From positions 372,001 through 436,000 of the forward strand of contig CAUYUJ010000336.1 of the NCBI GenBank assembly GCA_963575745.1: DNA of 64,000 bases, written 5' to 3'. Positions 2,659-52,992 of the stretch are shown piece after piece; within the stretch, counting starts at the first letter, position 1; every line of letters begins with the position of its first letter. Source of the stretch: Prorocentrum cordatum (taxonomy: Eukaryota). The notes under the pieces were generated by a model that was not told the origin of the DNA, did not search any database, and saw only the letters and a program-made list of their open reading frames with translations. Made by a program: the position numbers and the translations under genes.

Positions 2659-2739
2659 GGCGCTGGCCGCCGCCGGCCTCGTCCTCGCCCCGGTGCTCCC
2701 CGGCCCCTGCTTGGCGGCGGGGCCGGAGGAGGGCAAGAG
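2659..2739 (+). CDS. Exon A (first visible) of spliced NTF2/SnoaL-like (DUF2358-like) gene; encodes (R)ALAAAGLVLAPVLPGPCLAAGPEEGK(R), a Tat-like signal region
   Basis: C-rich tract then AG|G acceptor at 2657-2658 and AG|GC donor at 2740. It is phase 2 at both ends and splices in frame to exon B to give GKRRGLP. This is the least conserved part of the protein, so the least certain exon. Confidence 0.6.
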
Positions 2740-3349
2740 GCCGGCCGCGGTGGGGCACGGCTGAGAGGGCGACGACGTCGACGACGACGACGACGGCGGC
2801 GACGATGACGGCGGCGACGGCGGCGGCGACGGCGACGGCGGCCCCTTTGCTTCTCAATGCACGTTCGGTTTGATAGGATTTTCCCCCCTCAGGGCATGCC
2901 CCAGCATGTGTTCATATTGGGCCCATACCGTAACACTTCATGCAGCGGGGCCACGAATCCAGAACAGCCCTTCAGAGATCCGTCCCCAGCTTTTCTCCAC
3001 GGATTTTCCTCACCTGGAGCGGTACCGACATGTGTGCGCGACCACGGCGTGCAGGCGGGGAAGCGGGCAATCATATGAACCCACCGCTGGGCATAGGCTT
3101 TGTTGCGTTTCGGGCTCGAAGAAAGTTTGTGGCACGGGTGGGAGGACGAGAGGCAGGGGGGAGGATGACGGAAGGAAGGGGCAAGGAGTGAGAACGCACA
3201 CGTGCGAGACTCCGCGAATCCGTTAATTTTTCTTGACGTTCCGCGCATCCCCACCAGCCCATCCGAAACCGACGCCCAGGCAAGCTGTGACGACAGCCGT
3301 CATCATTCGAAGGAAGAGGAGGATGGATGAGGGAGTAGGCGCGGGCCAC

Positions 3350-5700
3350 TGCGAGGCGGTGAGCCGCGCATCTCCTGCCTGAGACGGGGAAGGGTACGCG
3401 GGTCTTGTGAGCGACTCAAACTCTGCCGTGCAGTCAGCGAGCTTTGCATGCTGCAGGCGTTTGGCCAGATCGGGCGCCACTATTGCAATATCGGATGAGA
3501 ACTGAACGTTGCGTCTTACTTGGGCGAAGTGTTCCAGGACTCTGTCAAGGCAGGCCTTGTAAAGCTGGCCTACGTTTGAAGCCGCGGACCAAGCGACCGT
3601 GGACAGCGCTGACAGGCACTTGGCCAAGGCCCGAGCAGCCGCAGACAAGGAAGGCCCGGTGCGAGCGAGCCCGCGATGCTTTTCTTGGCGGCGCCAGCTA
3701 GGCGAACGCCGCATCGAAGGCGCGGGCCCAGGCCGAGGTTCCCAAGCACAGCAGTGAACTTCCGCCTTGTCTTTTTCCTGACCGAGCTATGGATTGTTGG
3801 ACAAAGGTGCGGCAGCATCGTGGTCTTGCCGCGCCGGCCCTGCCGCGCGATACTTCGGCTCGGCCGACCACGCTTCGCATCGCTGCCGAACGTGCGCGAG
3901 CTGCGGCGCGCGGCGATGCACCCCGCGCGGCGGGAGGTCCCGGCGGGGCCGTCCCGCTTTTTTTTTTTTTTTTTTTTTTTTTTTTTTTTTTTTTTTTTTT
4001 TTTTTTTCTTTTTTTGGGTTTTTTTCTCTCGGCGTCTGGGCGCCCAGTCTGATCAGGTGCTGCAGGCGCTGGCGGAATGTGTTCACGCCGTTTGAGCGCT
4101 GGCTGGCATGGCCAGGAGATCGAATCTAAAGCGATATTGCACGAGCCCCGAAACCCGACGGGGGCACGAGGTTGATTGATGTTAGAAACAGTTTGCTCAG
4201 TTTTTTTGTTCGGGGGGGCGACGGCCGGTCTCGAACGAGCGGCGCGAGCATTGCCATTGCGAGGACATGTGGGGGATTCGAGCTGGACATGCTCAGACAG
4301 ACTCGGCCTTCCATCGGGGCCCCCGGCAGGAGGTGGCCCGACTGCGCGGAGAGCGCCGCGCTAGACGCGGCGGAATGGTCCGAAACTGCAGACCCCCATG
4401 CTCTCGCGCGCGACGGGCGTGCTCTGGGATTTCCCACGCGTCTCCTGGAATGCCCCGGCGCGCCAACTCCCCGGGCGCGTCTGAGCTCTTTTGCGGGCGC
4501 CCAGTGGCGCCGCTGCTCGACGAGGGGCTTTTTGGCCGCGCTCGCGCGGCCCACCTGCTGCGCCTGCTCGCGCTCAGCGCTTTGTCGAGCGCTGACCCGG
4601 CGTCGCCGACGGATGCGCCTCGGACCCTCATGGGCGAACTGGCTTAAGAGCATCGCCTGGATTTCGCGGGGCTTCAAATGCCCGCCCATCGCCGTCAAGG
4701 GCTTCGTCCAGGACAACGAGGGGCTCGGCGTGACCCACGAGGTCTCCGAGTCGGGCGGGGCCCCTGGAAAACGCGACTGAGGGGGCGCTCTCCAGGGGCG
4801 CGCGGGTTTGCCCGGGAACCCTGCAAGGCCCGCCTGAGAAATGTAGGCAACGAGCTCCTGGGACCCCGCGCGATCCGAACAATGGCGAGAAGAAGAGCCC
4901 CGCGTAATTTCCAGCACGGCGGCGCGGCCGTTGGACGGCGAGCGTCGCCCCCGTCGAGCATCTGCGCGCCCCCGTCGGTCGGCCGCGGGGCCGCCGCCGC
5001 CGTCGCGACCAGCGCTGTCTCGAGGGGGCAGCGTCTGATCGCGGCGACGGGCAGGGCCCCGGGCAGGTCTTCCACGAATGTCTTCAGCCAATCCAATGAT
5101 ATGTATGACCCCACTCATTATGCTTCTCTACTGGCGGCCCTTCGAAAGCGCCGAACGGATCTGGGACTCCAAGATTCAGCCTTCCAGGCCGCGCCGCGCC
5201 CGGGGGCGCATGCAGGCCGAGTTCGGGGGCGAGCCCACTTGGGCGAAGGCAAGGGACCTCTGGGAACTGTATGGCCCCCTCTTCGGGGGTCGCTTGGAAG
5301 CTCGGCCCTGGCCGCGCTGTCATGGGCGGTTTATCCAGCGCGCGCGACCTCCCTCGCGCCTGCCCCGGGGGCGTCAAAAAGTCGCTGGTCGGTGGCGCTC
5401 GGCCGCGGCAGCGCGACAGATGTTTAGGCCGCTTCTCCACGGTCACGCCTGCCTCGGCCCGGCCCGTCCGCGCGCAGCCCAAGTCGGCCGCGCGCGTCGA
5501 GATCGCGCCGTTCTGGCGCGCCCCGCGGGCAGATGGCATTTATGCCCCTGCGCGCTCTGCTCAGAAGGCCAGAGGCCCTTCGCGCCCTTGCCGGGCGCGC
5601 GGCAAGGAGAGCGATCATGGCTGAGGCCGCATTCTGCACGGCTGCCCGCCGCTGCTAGAAGGGCGGCTCGACGACGAGAGCAAACCCCCACCCTGGGAAC
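3350..5700 (-). pseudogene. Decayed coding-like element, possibly a KDZ/CxC-associated transposase
   Basis: Non-repetitive protein-like fragments in collinear order on the minus strand: SLAF..LEG, MLDGGDARR, SAALSAQSGHLL..MEGRVCLS, LDSISWP. They loosely recall CxC5/CxC6-KDZ motifs. Frameshifted and interrupted by a poly-T at about 3958-4016. Assignment is from memory only. Confidence 0.3.
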
Positions 5701-51669: not shown

Positions 51670-52330
51670 ATGATAAAGACAGGCTGCCTTGTACCATTGA
51701 TCCCCATCCCGTGCGTTAGATGAATGTAGAATTTTCGGGGTAGGGCCTCTCATATGCTGGATGGCCCACCATGTCCGGAAATCCACGACCATTCTGCTTC
51801 GCACCTTGCTACGCTGCAGCTTTCACACTGGATGCTTACCAGCGGTTCGCACCAGCCACGATGCCACGACGAGGCTCGAAAGTGGTGCTTTATCGCACAT
51901 GTGCAAGCTCACTGGCACATCGGATCTTGTTTTGTTTGTGTGGGCAGCTTCATTGTAGAGATGCCGCCCCGCACAGACCATGGCCGCGCCAATCGCGCAT
52001 GGTCGATCTTCGGAATCATTTAAGTGAGGTCAAATCATTTATGTGAGACTTTGTATCCTTTCAAAACAAACCCATCGAGGACGCCTCAGCATTATCGGGG
52101 CGGACCAGCTCCCGAAGGCGTTCGCACACGGTGCTGGCGCACCCGTTGCCGTGTCGCAGAGCAAGGTTATCCTTGACAACATAAGTACAGCTATATCTGA
52201 AACATGGTTCATGGAGTGTTGATCGCGTGCGTTGGATGGTTCAGCGTGGGGCATGACGGCTCCATATTTGAGCGTACCTCCCACAGGGCAGGCACAAAGG
52301 GACTTGATGCATCGGCAACGTGCGCATGCC
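51670..52330 (+). pseudogene. Possible decayed LINE C-terminal fragment
   Basis: Unique sequence. MLTSGSHQPRCHDEARKWCFIAH loosely resembles the W-x-T-x-x-R-x-H..C motif preceding the non-LTR zinc knuckle. Confidence 0.2.
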
Positions 52331-52946
52331 AACGCGGAGGAACAACTCTGGCGGTTCGACGCGCCTCGTGAGCCGATTGTCTTTGGATAGGCGTCGGACT
52401 CGGACGCGCCCGTCCTCGCGACAGCGCAGCCCCTCGGGCTTCAGGGCCGTCCCAGCGTCCCCTCCCCCGCCTCCGCGGAGGTTCTTTGCATCATTTCGAG
52501 CAGGTCCCGCTCCACCTGCGGCCCAGCCCGCAGGCTCGCGAATTTGGTTGGTTTTATTGTTTCCTCTCTTGGTGTTGAGAATACTCCCCTTTCCCCCCCC
52601 TCGCCCCCTCCCCTCTCCTCCTCAGCCCCCCCCCCTTCCTCTGAGGCTACGTCCTCCGCGCCATGCCCAGCCAGTCACGGGCGGGCTCCCCAGCGGAGCG
52701 CGCATGTCTCCGGCTCGCTCGCTCACTCCCTAGCCTCGGCGTCGAGCCCAGGCCTTCTCAGAAGGCGGCGGGGCTTCTCAGAAGCCCTCCGGCCTTCTTA
52801 GAAGCCGTCTGTGCCTGCGGAGAAGACTCAGAGAGATCTCAGAGGGCCGGAGGCCTCCTGAGCCTTCTGGGGAAGGCCTGCCCCTCTGCCTTTCCCCCCT
52901 GTGCTCGCCGCCGATGCTCGTGCCCCTCGCAGAGCAGCGGGCGCAG

Positions 52947-52992
52947 GTGGGACCAGACGCCGCTGGAGGTCATCCTCAACACCCGCCTGTGA
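52947..52992 (+). CDS. Terminal exon G: WDQTPLEVILNTRL*
   Basis: CAG|G acceptor. It completes the split Arg codon to give GLITAYRERWD (the G-x-I-x-x-x-x-E-x-W-D NTF2-like signature). TGA at 52990-52992. Confidence 0.9.

Follow-up and report, generated by a model that had tools for sequence, protein, structure and literature searches.

A long, spliced gene of Prorocentrum cordatum encodes an NTF2/SnoaL-like protein of a conserved algal family with a probable thylakoid-lumen leader

In the dinoflagellate Prorocentrum cordatum, a stretch of 64,000 nucleotides (GenBank assembly GCA_963575745.1, contig CAUYUJ010000336.1, positions 372,001 to 436,000 of the forward strand; hereafter the window) contains, between positions 2659 and 52992, seven exons of a gene for a small protein of the NTF2/SnoaL-like type. 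What is added here for this uncharacterised algal family is a probable location in the thylakoid lumen together with a probable conserved acidic pocket.

A preliminary description, made from the letters of this DNA, had placed the seven exons, and when they were re-read from the sequence the coordinates, the AG acceptors, the GC or GT donors, the introns of 9911, 2835, 20536, 2139, 679 and 13744 bases and the in-phase join all agreed exactly. The joined frame is stop-free and comprises 162 residues and a stop, amounting to 0.97% of the span (about 1% in the first estimate). Five donors are GC and one is GT, acceptors are AG throughout, and at five of six the AG is followed directly by G. The frame is not the product of chance, because it reproduces, without a difference, the C-terminal 162 residues of a gene model at NCBI, because the G+C of the exons at third codon positions (GC3) is 0.94, and because homologues align over every exon junction. 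That model, CAK0789979.1 (P0001 in the family comparisons), was the best of three proteins, from nine candidates, returned by a search with exon 6 only; it is labelled 'unnamed protein product, partial' for Prorocentrum cordatum, and the joined exons are identical to its residues 77-238. The gene is therefore already annotated, and the epithet 'hidden' that it first received does not apply. Relative to the seven exons, the model has 76 additional N-terminal residues from one or more exons outside the window and is without a functional name. In a tblastn search, residues 1-76 gave no credible match in window positions 1-2700, two matches of six residues there being due to chance, as neither extended to a longer tblastn match; at least one further exon, for residues 1-75, consequently lies upstream. 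Seven exons is thus correct for the window and too few for the gene, which has at least eight, and the start-codon exon is missing here just as the preliminary description had said. The start codon is probably Met22, which is nearly invariant in alignments of the family. The features are as follows.

Before the window, + strand: upstream exon or exons for residues 1-75, with the probable start Met22, the predicted signal peptide, the short transit peptide and the twin arginine.
1..2658, + strand: 3' part of the upstream intron, with its AG acceptor at 2657-2658; the gene model implies that the whole stretch is intron.
2659..2739, + strand: exon 1 of the window, coding for residues 77-102; these hold the hydrophobic and cleavage parts of the putative thylakoid transfer signal and, after them, the beginning of the mature domain.
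2740..12650, + strand: intron 1, 9911 bases, GC-AG, phase 2; 25% repeats.
12651..12707, + strand: exon 2, residues 103-121; first helix, with the invariant D118.
12708..15542, + strand: intron 2, 2835 bases, GC-AG, phase 2.
15543..15587, + strand: exon 3, residues 122-136; last 30 bases joined to exon 4 in four of four runs.
15588..36123, + strand: intron 3, nominally 20536 bases, GC-AG, phase 2; 54% repeats, largely a 20-base satellite.
36124..36187, + strand: exon 4, residues 137-158; conserved F-x-D-E-I-D motif.
36188..38326, + strand: intron 4, 2139 bases, GC-AG, phase 0; skipped in four of four runs.
38327..38377, + strand: exon 5, residues 159-175.
38378..39056, + strand: intron 5, 679 bases, GC-AG, phase 0; skipped in four of four runs.
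39057..39202, + strand: exon 6, residues 176-223; curved beta-sheet, with conserved E189 and E223.
39203..52946, + strand: intron 6, 13744 bases, GT-AG, phase 2; 64% repeats.
52947..52992, + strand: exon 7, residues 224-238 and the TGA stop; joined to exon 6 in three of four runs.

Searching with the mature domain returned 30 proteins out of 264 candidates, and a search of the full library found 303 clusters at E <= 0.001. Most members lack an organism name, and those that bear one are algae (Symbiodiniaceae, Polarella, Chromera, Nitzschia, Chrysochromulina, Pyramimonas, Mesostigma and Euglena). Proteins of Symbiodiniaceae and Polarella are 65-69% identical to P0001 over the mature domain and share its leader type and conserved acids; Durusdinium P0003 and Symbiodinium P0008, labelled 'SnoaL-like domain-containing protein', stand with Chromera P0174 among the closest known proteins. 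A quick tree (136 columns, 141 of 195 proteins), used for the placement of P0001 and for no claims of transfer, puts it with the dinoflagellates at a Shimodaira-Hasegawa-like approximate likelihood ratio of 94, on a longer branch than its dinoflagellate orthologues. It has V193 and W202 where 92 of 118 sequences have F and V; the two residues co-occur in two of the 118 (P0001 and P0004) and neither is found singly, a pattern that resembles mutual compensation between the two positions across the hairpin.

The protein had also been called DUF2358-like, and the likeness holds while Pfam membership does not. Of the named families, DUF2358 (PF10184; plants, green algae and cyanobacteria) comes nearest both in features (0.91) and in predicted structure (template modelling, TM, scores of 0.89, 0.82 and 0.75), its clusters are nearest in the Atlas with 166 shared features, just below the guide value of 170, and 36 of 118 relatives match it at E <= 0.1 (best E 6.3e-09). 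P0001 itself gives no match at E <= 1, and P0002 and P0003 reach 12.9 and 14.8 bits, short of the gathering cut-off of 24.3; P0001 is a relative of DUF2358 and not, by the Pfam cut-off, a member. P0001 likewise gives no match to SnoaL_2 (PF12680) and so falls short of its gathering score; one of 118 relatives matches SnoaL_2, at E 0.0042. The family is a conserved algal NTF2-like group mostly missed by Pfam. A scan of GTDB genomes gave 74 pattern matches, none of which was confirmed as a prokaryotic member; since two short patterns were used this is weak evidence of absence. A literature search that left most subscription papers outside its range found no paper on a lumenal NTF2-like family of this kind; PMC11181951, on the thylakoid proteome of P. 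cordatum, has no mention of SnoaL, NTF2 or lumen in its main text, and the SnoaL mention in PMC8889267 concerns an unrelated F-box protein.

The fold was modelled with AlphaFold2 from 118 sequences, at a predicted local distance difference test score of 96-99 over residues 101-238 and low confidence in the leader. The predicted cone, a curved beta-sheet on N-terminal helices, is what the NTF2-like superfamily requires. Foldseek placed ketosteroid isomerase 6uad first (E 9.1e-06), and VIA-align gave SnoaL-like 3hk4 (Z 12.7, root-mean-square deviation 2.1, 109 aligned), with many NTF2-like chains close behind and ketosteroid isomerase 6uae at Z 11.7; sequence searches of the PDB with two profiles returned nothing at E <= 10. 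The confident model and the two fold searches confirm, at the level of prediction, the NTF2/SnoaL-like fold first proposed for what is a mature domain of about 140 residues. A shared fold by itself shows no function. Ketosteroid isomerase, limonene epoxide hydrolase, SnoaL-type cyclases and Trt14 have this fold at Z 11-12.7, with acids at pocket-type strand positions; their identity to this protein is 8-16%, and the fold match does not imply that a catalytic set has been retained.

Three acids are near-invariant among the 118 sequences, D143 (118), E189 (114) and E223 (115), and E144, D146 and D226 are conserved as well. Conserved positions alternate along the strands (F185, F187, E189, L191 and position 193; Y221, E223 and W225; C139, F141 and D143), and because D143, E189 and E223 share the strand register of conserved hydrophobic residues they probably face the pocket of the modelled cone. 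The catalytic residues of ketosteroid isomerase are Y14, D38 and D99 (PMC9828297). An alignment to that enzyme by ranges only (model 105-236 to chain 1-124) brings D143 near D38 by offset. For limonene epoxide hydrolase, with its Asp-Arg-Asp triad of D101, R99 and D132, strand order would presumably set E189 and E223 near the Asp positions and F187 at the place of the Arg, and these two acids may correspond similarly to those of SnoaL.

Tentatively, then, the protein may be a lumenal, cofactor-free acid/base catalyst, of the isomerase, cyclase or epoxide-opening type, for which a pigment, a prenyl lipid or another hydrophobic metabolite of the plastid is the candidate substrate. This reading is favoured over a non-catalytic binder and over a stromal location; on the narrower matter of catalysis as against binding only, the odds are about even. 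A conserved pocket acid is treated as a hint of catalysis in PMC3924330, where exported NTF2-like domains are also said to be binders as a rule. A protein from the same gene in the same lumen might be non-catalytic, carrying or buffering a hydrophobic ligand (carotenoid, tetrapyrrole or lipid) or binding a cation through its acid cluster, in photosystem assembly or photoprotection, and this is only slightly less likely than the catalyst. The extra conserved acids E144, D146 and D226 suit such a role, as does the presence among the structural neighbours of a DUF2358 domain fused to SOUL heme-binding proteins (TM 0.74). Other DUF2358 genes are tied to photosynthesis, namely rice and Arabidopsis At1g65230 (PMC9105198) and Chlamydomonas CPL14, a candidate gene (PMC8448359), and bioRxiv 10.64898/2026.10.27.762293 describes DUF2358 as enriched in photosynthetic chrysophytes, but these genes are at most candidate orthologues of the present family. 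Against a binder, three near-invariant acids in pocket register would exceed the need of a plain hydrophobic carrier.

The location rests on the leader, which the preliminary description overlooked although the hydrophobic part of the thylakoid signal lies in its exon 1. In P0001 a hydrophobic stretch at about 42-57 is followed by Phe65 after A-G-A, then by nine residues, R-R-R at 74-76, a second hydrophobic stretch and C-L-A-A ahead of the domain; the twin-arginine region reads L-G-R-R-R-A-L and then the hydrophobic stretch. Phenylalanine after the cleavage site is the rule for dinoflagellate leaders. Leader statistics were drawn from 124 of 173 proteins, those with the domain start and a leader of at least 50 residues, under motif thresholds of the authors' choosing. 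Twin arginine (RR) occurs in 78 of the 124 against 20.7 expected, and RR with a hydrophobic run in 67 against 6.8 in shuffles; an A-x-A occurs in 85 against 50.5, a weaker enrichment than that of RR. Anchored on RR, the leaders have Leu at +4 in 42 of 78 and Ser, Gly or Thr at -1 in 50 of 78, giving a profile of hydrophobic, S/G/T, R, R, x, A/L/F, L, to which the twin-arginine translocation (Tat) consensus in PMC8662606 is close. The sequence features of Tat-imported lumen proteins, namely S/T-R-R-x-hydrophobic-L, a hydrophobic stretch and an A-x-A type site after a plastid leader, are all found. The leader would thus have three parts, a signal peptide, a short transit peptide and a twin-arginine thylakoid transfer signal, by which the protein would be imported into the plastid and then translocated by Tat, in folded form, to the thylakoid lumen. 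A plastid location, in keeping with named relatives that are all algae, is very probable and a lumenal one probable.

Real gene and fold might still belong to the stroma or the plastid envelope, with the second hydrophobic stretch acting as the stop-transfer of a dinoflagellate transit peptide, as in the class I presequences of dinoflagellates, and not as a thylakoid signal. A basic K-R-R cluster after that stretch and a transit peptide of only about nine residues ahead of RR would accord with this, but relatives well removed from the dinoflagellate clade have the RR-hydrophobic-AxA pattern too, and K102 belongs to the mature domain, where 95 of 118 family members keep it; a stromal or envelope protein is unlikely.

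Several observations weigh against the lumenal catalyst preferred here. The twin arginine of P0001 lies outside the window and is known from the gene model only, and 57 of the 124 leaders fail a strict Tat test, some of which may use the secretory (Sec) route or have a mis-called start. The best fold matches are tied, enzymes standing among them beside proteins without a known function, the inward-facing acids were read from register and not from model coordinates, and no substrate, localisation or mutant data for this protein were found. Finally, the closest relative, P0004 (71%), is labelled by UniRef as Spumella elongata, a non-photosynthetic organism; its grouping among dinoflagellate sequences suggests a mislabelled or contaminating transcript.

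That this is a real and spliced nuclear gene of a peridinin dinoflagellate is virtually certain. Exon 6 is present in 20 of 24 listed sequencing runs from nine studies, and contigs of four runs (X2, X3, X8 and X9, one from each of four studies) were compared with window positions 35950-39500. RNA is on record for X2 and X8 only, all four were available as contigs, and some of the run data may have contributed to the gene model. In each of the four a single contig spans exons 4, 5 and 6 with no other letters, omitting the 2139 and 679 bases between them. Contig ends outside these exons were matched to exon sequence by eye, over up to 30 letters per end: 5' of exon 4 they equal the last 30 bases of exon 3 in all four runs, and 3' of exon 6 they equal exon 7 in three (30 bases in X2 and X9, 10 in X8), the contig of X3 ending at the exon 6 boundary. 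The 20.5 kb and 13.7 kb introns are therefore also spliced. Two contigs reach 193 and 217 bases 5' of exon 4, where exons 1-3 total 183. Four of six junctions, then, are spanned by contigs, and for junctions 1-2 and 2-3 the support comes from homologues and from the gene model. Contigs of other transcripts, 90-95% alike, and not this gene account for a joint at 38619-38710 that has 27 other letters in between and for the intronic cover at 36.8-37.7 kb. An artefact of assembly or annotation, or contigs from an intronless retrocopy elsewhere, might be suspected from the 100-N run in intron 3, the lack of any report of the joined form in DNA runs and the position of junctions 1-2 and 2-3 outside the contig-compared region, but it is hardly credible and largely refuted by exons joined without other letters on GC/GT-AG sites, by two joined contigs from poly(A) RNA libraries and by an intact frame with its conserved residues retained.

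The architecture, implied at first to be surprising, is ordinary for this genome. In Table 2 of PMC10666404, P. cordatum has a mean gene of 24,462 bases, a mean intron of 4709, donors that are GC in 51.4%, GT in 24.7% and GA in 23.8%, and AGG acceptors in 79.7%; the review PMC11453091 gives an intron of 26,372 bases in another dinoflagellate. Here the mean intron is 8307 bases in a gene of more than 50 kb, and splice-site usage (five of six donors GC against 51.4%, five of six acceptors with the following G against 79.7%) is in line with the genome. GC donors and multi-kb introns are normal for P. cordatum; the gene is about twice the average size, not another kind of architecture, and its coding share is lower because the reading frame is short. 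By the definition in PMC10666404, introners carry an inverted repeat 8-20 bases long that lies no more than 30 bases from each end of the intron, and an introner origin was rejected for all six introns, the longest inverted match being 4-7 bases.

The window has a G+C of 59.6% and a single run of 100 N, which lies inside intron 3 and makes the length of that intron, 20536 bases, nominal. Tandem or self-similar sequence makes up 25%, 54% and 64% of the three longest introns, which would have been enlarged by satellite and dispersed repeats. Pfam found no nested gene or transposon protein above cut-off, and two weak matches, among 140 of 357 open reading frames of at least 100 residues chosen by sequence complexity. 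The 20-base satellite forms several arrays (up to 72 copies) at 23200-30700, with block duplications of 0.2-1.1 kb at 90-98% identity; a 197-base unit stands three times at 28960-29548, and intron 6 has about 2 kb of low-complexity triplet-like repeats at 49000-51100, where G+C falls to 45-49%. Further repeat families have copies at about 40.8-48.9 kb and at 31, 44 and 54-55 kb, and 3' of the gene a 1.3 kb dispersed repeat is present at 57919-59165 and 61404-62716 (85% identity).

Two splice sites have copies nearby. The exon 1 acceptor (2634-2671) is copied 1.9 kb upstream at 714-751 with 84% identity over 38 bases and no donor after it; 22 bases are exact, comprising the AG and 13 exon bases, against longest exact words of 10-15 for the other 13 splice-site 40-mers and at most 16 in 300 shuffles. 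The end of exon 6 with its donor (39166-39215) has a diverged copy 90 bases 3', at 39256-39305 (82% over 50), with AT in place of the donor GT; this copy is neither covered by a contig nor the start of a joint in one. In intron 1, about 130 bases at 4633-4765 on the + strand have coding-like GC3 (up to 1.0) within an open frame of 216 residues; with no Pfam match and no usable Atlas match, this is possibly a decayed coding fragment.

The gene structure alone is of no import, being annotated and typical of its genome, even if the preliminary description, from the unannotated letters, placed the boundaries of all seven exons correctly. What modest value there is comes from the family, an algal group of conserved NTF2-like proteins that have a lumen-type leader and a predicted acidic pocket. 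More broadly, because fold, leader, conserved acids and named taxa would fit it, a far more speculative and very improbable reading is allowed, that of a putative, so far unrecognised, alga-wide lumen enzyme, its pocket carboxylates switched by lumen acidification, that opens or rearranges epoxy-carotenoids of the violaxanthin, diadinoxanthin and neoxanthin branch. Were this true, the family would fill in a step that is missing from algal pigment synthesis or photoprotection.

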